NCBI GenBank assembly: GCA_035654455.1
Contig: DASRWT010000065.1
Coordinates: 3,399 to 67,398 of the forward strand
Source of the DNA: Candidatus Nitrosocosmicus sp.
GTDB taxonomy: Bacteria; Methylomirabilota; Methylomirabilia; Rokubacteriales; CSP1-6
DNA length: 64,000 nt
Direction of reading: 5' to 3'
In this document: positions 20,143-38,896 of the stretch, piece by piece
Layout of the letters: every line of letters begins with the position of its first letter
Numbering within the stretch: the first letter of the stretch is position 1
Position numbers and translations under genes: made by a program
The notes under the pieces: generated by a model
Database searches by the model: none
What the model was told of the DNA's origin: nothing
What the model saw: the letters and a program-made list of their open reading frames with translations, nothing else

Positions 20143-20238
20143 CGAGGCTCCTCCGGGCAGCAGGGGTCGGTGCTGTCGAGTGCCGCGATGATCGCCGGGC
20201 GCGTGGCCCGGCGCAAGCCCCCTGCCGCCTGTCGAAGC

Positions 20239-20379
20239 CTAGTGCGAAAGCCAGCCGCTCATCATCCAGAAGGCGCCGGCGACTCCGCCCGCAACGGCGA
20301 GGAGTCCCGTCGAGAAGTCGCCCGAGACCGCCATGGTCACCGGCACTGCCATCGCCGCCATCCCGATAAAGGTCTTCAT
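20239..20379 (-). CDS. small hydrophobic protein (46 aa)
   Basis: MKTFIGMAAMAVPVTMAVSGDFSTGLLAVAGGVAGAFWMMSGWLSH, two predicted TMs. ggaggg SD 7-8 nt upstream of ATG 20379. Confidence 0.4.
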   Translation of the reverse strand: MKTFIGMAAMAVPVTMAVSGDFSTGLLAVAGGVAGAFWMMSGWLSH

Positions 20380-20525
20380 GGCTCCCGCCCTCCGTTGACG
20401 CAAGGACAGAGCAATGGGTATGCCAGCCCTTAACGACAGCAGATTCGCAGGGTTACTCACAGATGAGGAGGGCGGTGGGAAGCTTGTGCCCGGCAAGAGA
20501 GTAAGTTTGCCCGCCGGAGGACTGG

Positions 20526-20777
20526 TCAGGCGACCGGTTCGGGCGCGTCGAGTGGGACCATGAACGCGCCCACGGACACCAGGGACTCGTCATTCTCCGG
20601 CCGCCAGCGGCGATGGCCCTGCCGCCGCTCGTCTTCCAGATCCGCCCACCGGCGGCGGCGCTCCCCTTGCCGACGATCGAGGGTCACCAGCACGTCCTGC
20701 TCGTCGGAAAAATGGCGCACGAGGTAATCAGCCAGATCGGGCCTGGTCTTCGAAACGATGAACAGATAGCGCGCCAT
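20526..20777 (-). CDS. hypothetical protein
   Basis: 83 aa from MARYLFIVSKTRPDLADYL (gggggtggag SD) with an Arg-rich central segment. No recognised domain. Confidence 0.5.
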   Translation of the reverse strand: MARYLFIVSKTRPDLADYLVRHFSDEQDVLVTLDRRQGERRRRWADLEDERRQGHRRWRPENDESLVSVGAFMVPLDAPEPVA

Positions 20778-20892
20778 CTCCACCCCCGACGGAATAAGCA
20801 AGTTCGCTGCCTGTAGCGGAAGAGCAACCATTCCGACAGGATCGACACGAGGCTCTCATGTCCCGCGACGGAAGCGTAAGCTTTTCCGACGT

Positions 20893-21792
20893 CTATCGGT
20901 ACTCCCTAGCATAGAGATCCTCGCGGGTGGTCGGCACGTCAAAGCGGGAGTCCCACTGCTTGCGCATGAGGACTTGATAGAGCCCGATATGGCCCTCCTG
21001 GAAGGCCACCGACGAGCACGTGAGGTAGAGGCGCCAGATGCGATAGATCCGCTCGCCCACGAGCGCGCGCGCCTCATCGGCCCGCGCCTCGAGCCGCTCC
21101 ACCCACTCGCGGCAGGTCCGCGCATAGTGGAGCCGCAGGCCCTCGACATCCACGATCTCCCAGCCGGCGCGCTCCTGCTCGGTCATGGTCTCGGTGAGTC
21201 CTGCCAGCTCGCCGTTGGGGAAGACGTACTTGTAGAGGAAGTCGGTCTGGGTGGTGGGTTTCCAGTGGAACTCGTGAGTGATGCCGTGATTGAGATAGTA
21301 TCCCCCGTCATTGAGCATGGTCCGGACCCGGCCGAAAAAGGCCGGATAGTTGGCGATGCCCACGTGCTCGATGACGCCGACGGCCGCGATCTTGTCGTAG
21401 CGCGCGTCCGCGGGCAGGTCGCGGAAGTCCCGATACTCCACCAGGCAACGTCCGGTGAGCCCCTCTCGCTCGATCCGCGCGGCGGCGAACTCGGCCTGGG
21501 CGCGGGACAGTGTCACGCCGTGCGAGCGCACCCCGTAGTGCTGGGCAGCCCAGATCGCCAGGCTCCCCCACCCGCAGCCGATGTCGAGCAGGGTCTCGCC
21601 GGGCTGGAGCCGCAGCTTGCGGCAGACCAGGTCCAGCTTGTCGGCCTGCGCCTGTTCGAGCTTGCCGTCCGGATCCCGATAGTAGGCGCACGTGTAGACC
21701 ATGAGCGGGTCGAGGAAGAGCGCGTAGAACTCGTTGGACTGGTCGTAGTGGTACGAGATGGCCTCGGCGTCCCGCTTCTTGCTCCGCCTCAT
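20893..21792 (-). CDS. cyclopropane-fatty-acyl-phospholipid synthase family SAM-dependent methyltransferase (catalytic domain only)
   Basis: 299 aa. Begins at the family-conserved HYDQSNEFYALFLDPLMVYTCAYY, then LLDIGCGWGSLAIWAA and IAAVGVIEHVG. ATG overlaps the upstream stop (ATGA). Confidence 0.9.
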   Translation of the reverse strand: MRRSKKRDAEAISYHYDQSNEFYALFLDPLMVYTCAYYRDPDGKLEQAQADKLDLVCRKLRLQPGETLLDIGCGWGSLAIWAAQHYGVRSHGVTLSRAQAEFAAARIEREGLTGRCLVEYRDFRDLPADARYDKIAAVGVIEHVGIANYPAFFGRVRTMLNDGGYYLNHGITHEFHWKPTTQTDFLYKYVFPNGELAGLTETMTEQERAGWEIVDVEGLRLHYARTCREWVERLEARADEARALVGERIYRIWRLYLTCSSVAFQEGHIGLYQVLMRKQWDSRFDVPTTREDLYAREYR

Positions 21793-22916
21793 GAGGTCGC
21801 CTCCTTCATGCCGAAGATCGAGTCGAACACCACGCGGCGCCGCGCGCGCTCGGACCCGAGCACCACGCGCACCGCCAGCCGCGCCATCACCTCCGGGAGC
21901 CGGCCGATCTGCCGGCCGATCCAGCTGGGCTCGCCGGGCCCGTAGAGCGCCACGACCTCGCGCGCATAGCGATCGAGGGAATCGCCCCCCCGGAGGACTC
22001 GATGCGCCGCCGCGGCGGCGAGGATGCCGCTGCGGATGGCGGGCCCGATGCCCTCGCCGGAAAGATCGCGGGCCAGCCCCGCCGCGTCGCCCACGAGACA
22101 GAAGCCGGGGCCGGCCAGACGACGCGGCGCCTGCCGGCGCACGACATATGCGTGCCCCTTGAAGGGATCGAGCGGCATCGCCTCGGGCAGCCGGCCGCTG
22201 GCGCGCAGCATGGCGAGCAGGGCGTCGCGCCGCCTCGGCAGACTGCCGTCATTCCCGCCCGTGATGCCGATGCCCACATTGATGAAGTCGCCCTTGGGGA
22301 AGAACCACCCGTAGCCGCGCAGGTCGGGCTCCACATAGAGCTCGGGCGCGTCCATGAAGCGCTCGATCCGCGCCCGCCATTCGGCGGGCAGCCGCGTCTC
22401 GGTCTCCTGCGCGGCCACCACCTCTTCGCGCGCGGACACCTCCCCCAGATCGCGGGCCACCGGGCAGCGATGTCCGCCGGCGCCGATCACCAGGGGCGCC
22501 TCGAACACGCCCTGCTCGGTCTCGACGCGCGCGCCCGAGGGCCCCGCGGTGACCGCCTTGACGCGCACACCCCAGCGCACGTCCGCGCCCGCCGTCGCCG
22601 CGCGCTCGAGAAGAAAGTGATCGAACTCCCGGCGAATGATGCCGTAGGAGGCCGGTCCCCGCCAGCGCGTGTCGTGGCGCGCGCCCTGGAACTCCAGCGC
22701 GCAGGCGGCGAAGCCCTGGATGGTGAGCGGATACTTCTCGGGCTCGATCTCGAGGTCGGCCAGCGCGGCGAGCGTCACCCAGCCCGCGCAGATCTTCTGG
22801 CGGGGGAAGACGGCGGCGTCCAGCACCAGGGGGCGCAGCCCGGCCCGGGCCAATTGCCAGGCCGCCGTGCTCCCGCCGGGCCCGCCTCCCACCACGAGAA
22901 CGTCGTGGGTGGACAC
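21789..22916 (-). CDS. geranylgeranyl reductase family FAD-dependent oxidoreductase
   Basis: 375 aa. Motifs DVLVVGGGPGGSTAA, RQKICAGWV, YGWFFPKGDFINVGIG and LVGDAAGLA. GTG start lies one codon after the upstream TGA. Confidence 0.9.
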   Translation of the reverse strand: MSTHDVLVVGGGPGGSTAAWQLARAGLRPLVLDAAVFPRQKICAGWVTLAALADLEIEPEKYPLTIQGFAACALEFQGARHDTRWRGPASYGIIRREFDHFLLERAATAGADVRWGVRVKAVTAGPSGARVETEQGVFEAPLVIGAGGHRCPVARDLGEVSAREEVVAAQETETRLPAEWRARIERFMDAPELYVEPDLRGYGWFFPKGDFINVGIGITGGNDGSLPRRRDALLAMLRASGRLPEAMPLDPFKGHAYVVRRQAPRRLAGPGFCLVGDAAGLARDLSGEGIGPAIRSGILAAAAAHRVLRGGDSLDRYAREVVALYGPGEPSWIGRQIGRLPEVMARLAVRVVLGSERARRRVVFDSIFGMKEATS

Positions 22917-22919
22917 GGA

Positions 22920-23267
22920 TCAGGACTTCCAGAGCGAGAGCAGGATGCGCAGACGCTGGCCGGCGGTCACCTTGATCTCCTCGACCTCGTTGGCCACGCG
23001 CATGGCGTCGAAGAGATCGCCCTGGATGTCGATGGCGTTCGAGGCATAGGCCTCGGCGAAATGGCCGGGGCTGGGATCGCGCATGATCGAGACGAAGGTC
23101 TCCGGCGCGTGGATCACCACGAAGCAGGCAGGCTCGCCCTGACCGAGTCGCACCTCGGTGCCATCCCACAACCGGAAGGCAAGCGGGTGCTGCAGTCCCT
23201 TGAACACCTCGCCGAGAATCGACGCGGCGACACGGGCGTTCGGGCGCGGACGAAGAAGTGAGGGCAT
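22920..23267 (-). CDS. stand-alone CFA-synthase N-terminal-like domain protein
   Basis: 115 aa. FRLWDG...VVIHAPETFVSIMRDPSPGHFAEAYASNAIDIQGDLFDAM resembles the N-terminal (non-catalytic) domain of long CFA synthases. gagga SD 8 nt upstream of ATG 23267. Confidence 0.65.
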   Translation of the reverse strand: MPSLLRPRPNARVAASILGEVFKGLQHPLAFRLWDGTEVRLGQGEPACFVVIHAPETFVSIMRDPSPGHFAEAYASNAIDIQGDLFDAMRVANEVEEIKVTAGQRLRILLSLWKS

Positions 23268-23286
23268 GGCGTCGTCCTCAGCGCTT

Positions 23287-23314
23287 TGTATACGGAGGGA
23301 GCCGCGCTTGTCAA
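23287..23314 (-). promoter_or_regulatory. sigma70-like promoter for the 23267..20893 operon
   Basis: Minus strand: TTGACA (23314..23309), 16-nt spacer, TATACA (23292..23287). About 20 nt upstream of the SD/ATG of the first gene. Confidence 0.45.
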
Positions 23315-23477
23315 CCGAGGGCGTTGGCCCGCGCCGGCGCGGCGGCAGGCGGGTCCCTGGGTCACTGCATATAGCTGATTAAACGGACATTCTGCAAGGT
23401 GACCGTGTTTGTGAAGAACATGGACGACCGGGAGAAGATCAGCTCAAGATCGAGGCGACGGCCGTCCTCCCGGAACG

Positions 23478-24086
23478 CTAGAGACTCGGGCGCTCCGTGC
23501 TTGGCTTTGCGCCCGGGCCGAGCAATGGCGCTTTGCGCCCACCAGCCCGCTCGCCCTCCAGCAACGACGGGATGTCCGGATACGCGTAGATCGTCGGCGC
23601 GCCGTTCGCCGGCAGGCCGCCCGTGTCGATCGACGGGCCGTACACGCTGTGCACCTCGCGTCCCAGAAGGCGCAGCAGCGTGGTCTGCTCGGCCCGATGA
23701 TGCGCGGTGTGCGCGATGCGTCGCACCATGATCCACGCGCGGTTGTGCGTCGTGTCGAAGAACGCCACCTCGCGTTCCCACCACCCGGCATCCTGTCGCT
23801 CGAGCGCCGCGAGCCGCGCGCCGGAGTGCTCGGCGTAGCGCTCGATGAAGGCCAATCGCGTCTCCGGCGTCGGGACCGGCGGCGCGCCGACGTCGATGCC
23901 GAACATCTCGACGAACCATTTGTTCTCGCTCATGCACTGATGAACCATGTGCTCGCGTGGCGTCCGGTCGCGCGCGAGATTCGGATGGGGACGGACATCG
24001 AGGTCGGCGTCCCGGAACATGCTCCACACGCTGAGCGTCTTCAATCGCTCGGACGCATACGTCTCGACGAGGAATCCGTGGCTCAC
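23478..24086 (-). CDS. DinB family protein
   Basis: 202 aa. PREHMVHQCMSE ... IAHTAHHRAEQTTLLRLLG, a typical DinB-fold His pattern. Confidence 0.8.
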   Translation of the reverse strand: MSHGFLVETYASERLKTLSVWSMFRDADLDVRPHPNLARDRTPREHMVHQCMSENKWFVEMFGIDVGAPPVPTPETRLAFIERYAEHSGARLAALERQDAGWWEREVAFFDTTHNRAWIMVRRIAHTAHHRAEQTTLLRLLGREVHSVYGPSIDTGGLPANGAPTIYAYPDIPSLLEGERAGGRKAPLLGPGAKPSTERPSL

Positions 24087-38104: not shown

Positions 38105-38896
38105 GTGAGAGAAAACAAGCTCCGCACGATCTGGGCGCGCGGCGAGGCGGTGGTGAACGGGTGGCTGGCCATTCCCAGCGCGTTCTCGGCGGAGGTGATG
38201 GCCCATCAGGGCTTCGACTCCCTGGTGGTGGACATGCAGCACGGCGTCGTCGACTACCAGGTGGCGGTGACCATGCTCCAGGCCATCTCCACCACCGACG
38301 TGGTGCCGATGGCGCGCGTGCCGTGGAACGATCCCGCACGGCTCATGAAGATCCTCGACGCCGGCGTCTACGGCGTGATCTGCCCCATGATCAATACGCG
38401 CGAGGAGGCGGAAGCGCTGGTGCGGCACTGCAAGTATCCGCCGCGCGGCCACCGCTCCTGGGGTCCGGTGCGCGCCTCCATCTACGCGGGCGCGGACTAT
38501 GGCGACCACGCCAACGACGACATCGTGGTCATGCCCATGATCGAGACCGCGGAGGCGCTGAAGAACCTCGACGACATCCTGACCGTGCCCGGGGTGGACG
38601 CCATCTACGTGGGCCCCTCCGATCTCTCCCTCGCGCTGGGCTGCAAGCCGCGGCTCGACCAGACCGACGCGCCGGTGGTGGAGGCGCAGCAGAAGATCGT
38701 GGAGGCCTGCAAGAAGCACGGTGTGATCGCGGGCATCCACAACAGCACCTCCGCCTACTCGCTCAAGATGATCGAGGCCGGCTACCAGTTCGTGACGCTC
38801 GCCAGCGACAGCCGCTTTCTCGCCCAGCGTGCCGCGGAGGAAGCCGCCGCGGTCAAGAAGACGGGCGTGAAGGCCGGCAAGCTGCCGGGCTACTAG
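38105..38896 (+). CDS. HpcH/HpaI family aldolase
   Basis: 263 aa from GTG 38105 (aaggag SD). Motifs DSLVVDMQHG, RVPWND and MIETAEAL, a class II aldolase/citrate-lyase-beta-like barrel. Confidence 0.88.
   Translation: MRENKLRTIWARGEAVVNGWLAIPSAFSAEVMAHQGFDSLVVDMQHGVVDYQVAVTMLQAISTTDVVPMARVPWNDPARLMKILDAGVYGVICPMINTREEAEALVRHCKYPPRGHRSWGPVRASIYAGADYGDHANDDIVVMPMIETAEALKNLDDILTVPGVDAIYVGPSDLSLALGCKPRLDQTDAPVVEAQQKIVEACKKHGVIAGIHNSTSAYSLKMIEAGYQFVTLASDSRFLAQRAAEEAAAVKKTGVKAGKLPGY

Follow-up and report, generated by a model that had tools for sequence, protein, structure and literature searches.

The three genes described here lie in a 64,000-nucleotide (nt) stretch of contig DASRWT010000065.1 (hereafter the window; G+C content ~70%), from an assembly placed among the Rokubacteriales in the GTDB lineage. 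They are consecutive open reading frames (ORFs), all on the minus strand, which we call g1, g2 and g3 in their 5' to 3' order. The first, g1 (22920..23267), starts with ATG and encodes 115 amino acids (aa) ending in ...RLRILLSLWKS, a free-standing form of the N-terminal domain (N-domain) of lipid methyltransferases of the cyclopropane fatty acid synthase (CFAS) and BfaB type. It is followed by g2 (21789..22916), with a GTG start, whose 375-aa product is a TmpA-type flavoprotein of the geranylgeranyl reductase (GGR) superfamily and a putative methylene or olefin reductase. The last gene, g3 (20893..21792), starts with ATG and encodes 299 aa beginning with MRRSKKRDAEAISYHYDQSNEFY; this is the catalytic domain of an S-adenosylmethionine (SAM)-dependent methyltransferase of the CMAS family and the BfaB clade, devoid of an N-domain. 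Unlike in the long bacterial CFAS enzymes, the N-domain is therefore not on the catalytic polypeptide but forms a 115-aa ORF of its own, with a 375-aa gene in between, and g2 is co-oriented with, and directly adjoined on both sides by, the genes for the two parts of a CFAS-family methyltransferase. A gap of 3 nt separates g1 from g2 ('TGA tcc GTG'), g2 and g3 overlap by 4 nt ('cATGAgg'), and a Shine-Dalgarno-like purine run lies 7-12 nt 5' of every start codon. The coordinates and both junctions had been given in an earlier reading of the same DNA (the original prediction), and all were borne out by the ORF reading.

A promoter-like element precedes g1 on the same strand (23287..23314), with a -35 hexamer TTGACA (23314..23309), a spacer of 16 nt and a -10 hexamer TATACA (23292..23287) that ends 19 nt 5' of the g1 ATG. 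The original prediction had called it consensus-like, a description that holds for the hexamers, which are present and conserved, but not for a strict sigma-70 scan of 20200..23700, which called no promoter and no terminator and missed the element because its -10 hexamer lacks the final T. Five relatives whose g1 is 73-95% identical (L014, L009, L010, L003 and L001) have kept both GTTGACAA and TATACAAA despite divergence in the spacer and the flanks, and because of this conservation of both hexamers we retain the putative promoter as a feature of the locus.

The identity of g1 follows from profile searches and fold comparison, a sequence search of the PDB alone being insufficient (no significant match; best 5z9o, E 0.53). 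The protein matches Pfam DUF7884 (PF25371), the N-domain of long CFA synthases, with an E value of 2.7e-9 and a score of 37.5 bits, above the gathering cut-off of 27. On the NCBIfam CfaB model, which has 393 positions, it covers positions 5-82. Both profile matches are significant and uphold the earlier claim that g1 resembles only the non-catalytic N-terminal domain of these enzymes. Its nearest characterised match is the N terminus of BfaB (E 3e-6). An AlphaFold2 model of g1 alone (predicted local distance difference test score, pLDDT, 77) finds its best fold matches in the CFAS N-domains of 7qos and 5z9o, followed by SCP2-type lipid-carrier folds, and g1 is accordingly modelled as an SCP2-like, predicted lipid-binding fold. 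Homologs of g1 are rare, an exhaustive search of 1.84 billion representatives giving only 209 clusters at E <= 1e-3, the nearest being ~100-130 aa long; among 44 homologs, 42 stand alone as PF25371 proteins of 95-125 aa, and an alignment of 24 stand-alone N-domain proteins has 25 invariant positions.

The product of g3 matches the CMAS profile PF02353 over its entire length, with an E value of 2e-92 and a score of 309.8 bits (cut-off 27); its residues 4-274 align with profile positions 2-273 of 273. Its best blastp match among characterised enzymes is BfaB of T. curvata (47% identity, 247 bits), and identity declines through TmpB of Marinobacter (42%) and Cfa of E. coli (37%) to TmpB of Desulfobacter (33%). 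The motifs DIGCGWG (SAM), YTCAYY, IEHVG, LNHGIT and LHYART align with their E. coli positions, and LNHxIT and FPxGEL are common to g3 and BfaB. The Cys, Glu, His and Tyr of the bicarbonate site, which we take to be C139, E239, H266 and Y317 in E. coli numbering, are all kept in the alignment. These residues are marked in the supplement of Blitzblau et al. 2021 (PMC7791843). Against the curated CFA-synthase models, g3 stays far below the equivalog or exception cut-offs (357 versus 650 and 248 versus 400 for NCBIfam CfaB NF040703 and PRK11705), which the missing N-domain explains in part. In neighbour-joining trees g3 groups with BfaB and not with E. coli Cfa: catalytic domains from loci with the gene order seen here form a joint clade with BfaB and one further locus (L015, discussed below) at 100% bootstrap, and the gamma-type and Desulfobacter-type TmpB clades (94% and 96% bootstrap) stand apart from it. 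The 120 closest homologs of g3 are all 267-314 aa long and carry generic names, either 'cyclopropane-fatty-acyl-phospholipid synthase' or 'class I SAM-dependent methyltransferase'.

Placed end to end, g1 and g3 are colinear with E. coli Cfa, TmpB and BfaB, and the break between them falls in the interdomain linker of the single-chain enzymes, opposite E. coli ...ARLFNLQSKKRAWIVGKEHYD. The product of g3 spans CfaB model positions 99-393, and alignments of solved CFAS structures to g3 start at approximately residue 103-109 of those chains, in agreement with the original prediction that g3 begins where the catalytic domain continues in single-chain enzymes. The two products are also structurally compatible. 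Modelled by AlphaFold2 as one chain, g1 and g3 give a pLDDT of 88.6 and a predicted template modelling score (pTM) of 0.87, with the N-domain at pLDDT 88-97 and low confidence limited to residues ~101-130, around the junction at 115/116. This model overlays on two-domain CFAS structures over 390-396 columns, with template modelling (TM) scores of 0.89-0.90 (7qos), 0.84 (5z9o) and 0.85 (6bqc), whereas single-domain mycolic-acid enzymes align over ~264-288 columns only. The model supports g1 docking on g3 as in the solved CFAS enzymes; structure prediction, which had been suggested as a check, thus returned the canonical docking, although for one fused chain only. In E. coli CFAS the linker (residues 100-120) is disordered and its sequence and length can be freely changed, and when its N- and C-domains are made from separate cistrons they do not come apart during affinity purification (Hari et al. 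2018, as described in PMC9851988). The E. coli enzyme (PDB 6bqc) shares the two-domain architecture, and the natural break found here is the counterpart of its disordered linker; as described in that source, the engineered split provides a likeness for two separately encoded domains that remain together. In nature, the E. coli protein is one chain, makes cyclopropane rings and has no partner reductase.

The middle gene passes the cut-off of the GG-reductase family model TIGR02032 (172 bits against 158.8), confirming the earlier assignment of g2 to the GGR-family FAD (flavin adenine dinucleotide) enzymes. Its best PDB match is 3oz2, a digeranylgeranylglycerophospholipid reductase (5e-18), and it has the motifs GGGPGGS, FPRQKICAGWV and GYGWFFPKGDFINVGIG. 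Like the archaeal reductases of this kind (3oz2, 3atq), g2 has an FAD-binding GxGxxG and a YxWxFPx7GxG-type motif, and its cysteine aligns with the cysteine of the ...PVRCGEG... segment of 3oz2. Unlike them, it is only distantly similar (~5e-18 to 3oz2), falls far under the equivalog cut-offs and belongs to a distinct clade whose genes always adjoin a CMAS gene, and it presumably acts on an acyl chain of the methylene- or methyl-alkenyl kind and not on a polyprenyl chain. Much closer are the published TmpA proteins, of which those of Thiohalospira (43%) and Marinobacter (38% over the full length, 2e-65) are more similar to g2 than the Desulfobacter type (~31%). All CMAS-adjacent GGRs in the tree, together with all five published TmpA sequences, form one clade at 96.5% neighbour-joining bootstrap, and g2 lies inside it. 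The clade has the signature FPRxKxCAGW (K-x-C-A-G-W), while GGR homologs without a CMAS neighbour have CGGG and fall outside. The original prediction had placed the reductase in another family than the actinobacterial BfaA, and this is what we find: g2 is of the GGR type, and M. smegmatis BfaA has no tblastn match in the 64-kb window at E <= 1e-3. No second CMAS gene was found within the window.

Two observations on the reductase tree and alignment may be added. Gamma-type TmpA proteins have an Arg in place of the Pro in the GGR 'FP' motif (GYGWVFRKGD). Furthermore, although the TmpA reductases are monophyletic, their partner methyltransferases fall into three well-supported clades (loci L001-L060 and the published TmpA and TmpB sequences). 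One is the Desulfobacter type, which lies near E. coli Cfa, another is gamma-proteobacterial, and the third is the BfaB-like split type, with which the actinobacterial BfaB nests.

Conservation of the arrangement was assessed in two scans. In the first, g2 was compared with species-representative genomes, and the layouts of the resulting 60 loci were read by tblastn of g1, g2 and g3. In ~40 of these loci, across many phyla, a CMAS gene accompanies that of the reductase, in two principal layouts. In type A the N-domain, the reductase and the catalytic domain are encoded by three ORFs, as in the window; this layout was found in metagenome-assembled genomes (MAGs) of Rokubacteria/Methylomirabilota (up to 96% identity) and in three 'delta proteobacterium' MAGs, and its reductases form a subclade at 100% bootstrap within the TmpA clade. 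In type B the N- and catalytic domains are fused in one ORF (~370-475 aa) that abuts the reductase gene downstream, as seen in Gammaproteobacteria, Planctomycetaceae, Geobacteraceae, Betaproteobacteria, Spirochaetes, Bacteroidota and Desulfobacterales. The second scan was profile-based and considered the best 80 of 314 relatives, from Rokubacteria, Binatia, Nitrospinota and one 'Planctomycetota' MAG, with reductase identity down to 46%. The full type A order is present in 77 of these 80 loci and the other three are cut by contig ends, so that the N-domain/reductase/methyltransferase order, for which a survey of related genomes had been suggested, is conserved and recurs well beyond this assembly. 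Since the same order occurs in 77 of 80 loci, which come from independent assemblies, it goes far beyond what chance or an artefact would give, and the stand-alone homologs of g1, the short homologs of g3 and the shared order together indicate that it is an old, selected arrangement. A separate DNA scan for the TmpA signature returned at least 119 loci.

A few loci depart from these layouts. In L015 (2178..4474, a 'Gammaproteobacteria' MAG) the N-domain, the catalytic domain and the reductase are three separate ORFs in that order, so that the methyltransferase is split without being interleaved. The reductase of this locus branches as sister to the split-type clade (97% bootstrap), and its divergent catalytic domain is without the HYDxxNxFY and EHVG motifs. 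The locus may represent either a copy in decay or a step in the evolution of the split. Its order suggests that fission may have preceded rearrangement; the word 'inserted', used for the reductase gene in the original prediction, presumes one direction of change. In L047 (6001..8315, a Polyangiaceae MAG) the reductase lies upstream of a full-length (~381 aa) methyltransferase of the Desulfobacter type, with ~570 nt between the aligned regions, which represents a third gene order for the methyltransferase/reductase pair. In the closest relative of the window, L014 (6001..8029, ~95% protein identity), g2 and g3 are each interrupted by frameshifts, several in all, which are probably sequencing errors, as this is a long-read MAG.

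The closest described systems are the tmpBA and bfaAB operons. The tmpBA or 'ten-methyl palmitate' operon was described in bacteria containing 10-methyl-palmitate (Blitzblau et al. 2021, Biotechnol Biofuels 14:12, PMC7791843), and encodes a CFAS-family methyltransferase and a GGR-like flavoprotein in Desulfobacter, Desulfobacula, Marinobacter and Thiohalospira. Four of the five tmpBA operons produced 10-methylene-palmitate from palmitoleate in E. coli, the conversion being the work of TmpB from these four genera, and yielded no 10-methyl product; the authors likened TmpA to archaeal geranylgeranyl reductases and considered that oxygen might harm it or that it might lack an electron carrier which it needs (PMC7791843). 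The locus described here resembles tmpBA in the tight linkage of a CFAS-family methyltransferase to a GGR-like flavoprotein, in the placement of g2 in the TmpA clade with its KxCAGW signature, and in the expected chemistry, a 10-methylene intermediate that is then presumably reduced. It differs in that tmpB encodes a single polypeptide (~370-475 aa) upstream of tmpA, while here there are two polypeptides with the tmpA homolog in between, and in that the methyltransferase belongs to the BfaB clade and to neither published TmpB clade (gamma-type or Desulfobacter-type). With the actinobacterial bfaAB (Machida et al. 2017, PMC5660069; Blitzblau et al. 2021) the locus shares the methylene-then-reduce logic and a methyltransferase for which BfaB is the nearest relative of both g3 and g1, BfaB homologs being the enzymes that make 10-methylene fatty acids in the tuberculostearic acid pathway (PMC7791843). 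BfaB is, however, a single chain with a longer linker, and BfaA is an NADPH-dependent flavoprotein reported to be unrelated to TmpA, in place of which a GGR-type reductase is found here. Because g3 falls in the BfaB clade and g2 in the TmpA clade, the cassette combines a split BfaB-clade methyltransferase with a TmpA-clade reductase.

With moderate confidence, we propose that the three genes form a self-contained operon for mid-chain methyl-branched (10-methyl-type) fatty acids on membrane phospholipids, a variant of the tmp and bfa systems. In this model, g1 and g3 would be the halves of one BfaB-like SAM-dependent methyltransferase that associate non-covalently, g1 as the SCP2-like lipid-binding N-domain and g3 as the catalytic domain. 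Their joint substrate would be a monounsaturated acyl chain bound in a phospholipid, and methylation at its cis double bond would yield a methylene (or methyl-alkene) intermediate. The C=C bond of this intermediate would then be reduced by g2, the TmpA-type FAD enzyme, to leave a saturated methyl branch. Translational coupling through the 3-nt gap and the ATGA overlap may keep the three products in step, under the control of the conserved promoter 5' of g1. We infer from the nearest relatives that g1 and g3 act jointly and that their product is of the methylene/methyl and not the cyclopropane kind, and the likely chain length and position are drawn from the same source; by analogy with the experiments on BfaB and TmpB the intermediate would be of the 10-methylene type, and the analogy with TmpA likewise makes g2 the presumptive reductase. 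The original prediction had arrived at the same two-step logic, methylation of a lipid C=C bond followed by reduction, and this is the best-supported reading in light of the TmpA and BfaB clade memberships and a linkage that spans phyla, although we infer the reduction step.

Several points weigh against this proposal. TmpA was inactive in both E. coli and yeast, and reduction has been demonstrated for no TmpA (PMC7791843). The bicarbonate-site residues are kept in methylene-forming and cyclopropane-forming CMAS enzymes alike, such that sequence cannot separate the two. The protein trees are neighbour-joining trees only, and the docking model is that of an artificially fused chain, built from a block alignment, with CFAS structures in the AlphaFold training data. 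Methyl-branched lipids in Rokubacteria are a prediction from genes alone. In favour of the proposal, 10MeC16:0 is, along with 10MeC16:1, a typical lipid of Ca. Methylomirabilis, the sole cultured genus of the phylum (PMC6581649). No locus title names this genus among the best 80 of 314 relatives, which does not amount to a negative result for the cassette; nor did we find genetic work on the 10-methyl lipids of Ca. Methylomirabilis in the literature.

An unlikely alternative is that g1 and g3 constitute an ordinary, albeit split, cyclopropane fatty acid synthase, with g2 merely co-transcribed and serving a separate role on an isoprenoid side chain, such as that of MenJ on menaquinone or a reduction of polyprenol. 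The presence in g3 of all bicarbonate-site residues of cyclopropane synthases would suit such an enzyme, as would its best solved-structure matches, which are bona fide CFA synthases; for g2, some database sources name its homologs 'menaquinone-9 beta-reductase', and the activity of TmpA is unproven (PMC7791843). However, g2 scores 72 against the MenJ equivalog cut-off of 700, as g3 likewise misses the CFA-synthase cut-offs, and g3 groups with BfaB and not with E. coli Cfa. A merely co-transcribed reductase is also at odds with the linkage of reductase and CMAS genes in ~40 of the first 60 loci and many phyla, and with a reductase clade that has its own active-site signature and from which GGRs without a CMAS neighbour are excluded. 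Moreover, every tested methyltransferase of such pairs gave a methylene and not a cyclopropane product (PMC7791843).

It is rather improbable that the substrate is a lipid other than a phospholipid acyl chain, for instance an isoprenoid, a long-chain olefin or a quinone tail, in a sequence of steps like that of the sterol C24-methyltransferase followed by the delta-24(28) reductase. Characterised members of the GGR superfamily do reduce isoprenoid C=C bonds, and a free SCP2-like subunit could present various lipids. The nearest characterised methyltransferases, BfaB and TmpB, nevertheless act on delta-9/10/11 monounsaturated C14-C20 acyl chains (PMC7791843), the arrangement of N- and catalytic domains is that of the phospholipid-acting CFA synthases, and no isoprenoid-pathway genes flank the cassette. 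Finally, we reject as extremely improbable the view that no functional two-subunit enzyme exists here and that the split merely marks a disrupted pseudogene or an error of assembly or reading frame: the frameshifts of the near-identical long-read MAG L014 and the degenerate catalytic domain of L015 could be cited for it, but it is ruled out by conserved order and intact ORFs, since 77 of 80 loci, drawn from several phyla and assembled independently, have three intact frames and the same tight junctions at reductase identities down to 46%, by the start codon, Shine-Dalgarno sequence and conserved promoter that g1 has to itself, by the 25 invariant positions among 24 stand-alone N-domain sequences, and by the short form of 120 out of 120 closest g3 homologs.

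Within the proposed methyl-branching pathway, a more elaborate version can be imagined, which we regard as a long shot, in which the release of the N-domain from the methyltransferase, and the position of its gene ahead of that for the reductase, reflect a three-component machine and g1 presents the same acyl chain first to g3 for methylation and then to g2 for reduction. If g1 did serve both enzymes, TmpA-type reductases would need g1-like presentation or a matching partner, and the form found in Rokubacteria, Binatia and Nitrospinota would be a system in which TmpA reduction could be reconstituted.

The original prediction knew of no description of this architecture, and that statement stands in part. 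The pairing of a methyltransferase with a GGR-like flavoprotein has been published as tmpBA (PMC7791843), which narrows the claim to novelty; what appears undescribed is the split, interleaved order of N-domain, reductase and catalytic domain, together with its occurrence across Rokubacteria, Binatia and Nitrospinota. Within the literature searchable to us, we found no follow-up on TmpA and TmpB beyond the 2021 paper and no description of the split. This is a known pathway in a new gene organisation and not a new kind of system. The cassette leads to the prediction that mid-chain methyl-branched fatty acids occur in Rokubacteria, Binatia and Nitrospinota, which are abundant uncultured lineages of soil, subsurface and marine environments. 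In sediment work, 10Me16:0 is credited to sulfate reducers or Methylomirabilis. In soil phospholipid fatty acid studies, 'actinomycetes' are routinely taken as the source of 10Me16:0, 10Me17:0 and 10Me18:0 (e.g. PMC6275175). These biomarker assignments would be less secure if tmp-type cassettes were widespread in other phyla. The locus also represents a natural counterpart of the engineered E. coli CFAS split, with an N-domain that is evidently a separable subunit and hence useful for dissecting its role. The locus links methyltransferases of the BfaB clade to reductases of the TmpA clade, and it provides many new TmpA candidates for the unproven reduction step, which is of interest to groups engineering saturated branched lipids as lubricants.

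Some relatives of the cassette lie in contigs binned as Verrucomicrobiia, Nitrosotalea sp. (an archaeon), Acidoferrum, Deferrimicrobiaceae, Limnocylindria and Eisenbacteria (L003/L063, L004/L071, L074, L075, L076, L079 and L080). Their reductases are 73-86% identical to that of the window, equal to contigs labelled Rokubacteria, and this looks like mis-binning rather than gene transfer.

The surroundings of the cassette differ from those of its relatives. Synteny with even the closest of them stops just upstream of the -35 hexamer, and the DinB-family gene that lies upstream in the window (23478..24086) has no tblastn match in any related locus, which places the cassette in variable genomic contexts; the conserved unit is the three-gene cassette. 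Its neighbours encode beta-lactamase-family, DinB, CoA-transferase, enoyl-CoA hydratase, short-chain dehydrogenase/reductase and zinc-dependent alcohol dehydrogenase proteins, with no apparent functional tie to it. A fourth ORF, g4 (20526..20831, minus strand), lies 61 nt downstream of g3 and encodes an arginine-rich protein of 101 aa with no Pfam or NCBIfam match; a ferredoxin is ruled out, as it contains no cysteines. It is absent from the more distant split-type loci and kept at the same position, with 58-87% identity, only in the closer Rokubacteria (L001/L061, L002/L062, L003/L063, L009/L132, L010/L135, L014, L086 and L093). The sole tRNA gene of the window is that for tRNA-Val (GAC), at 38310..38401 on the minus strand.

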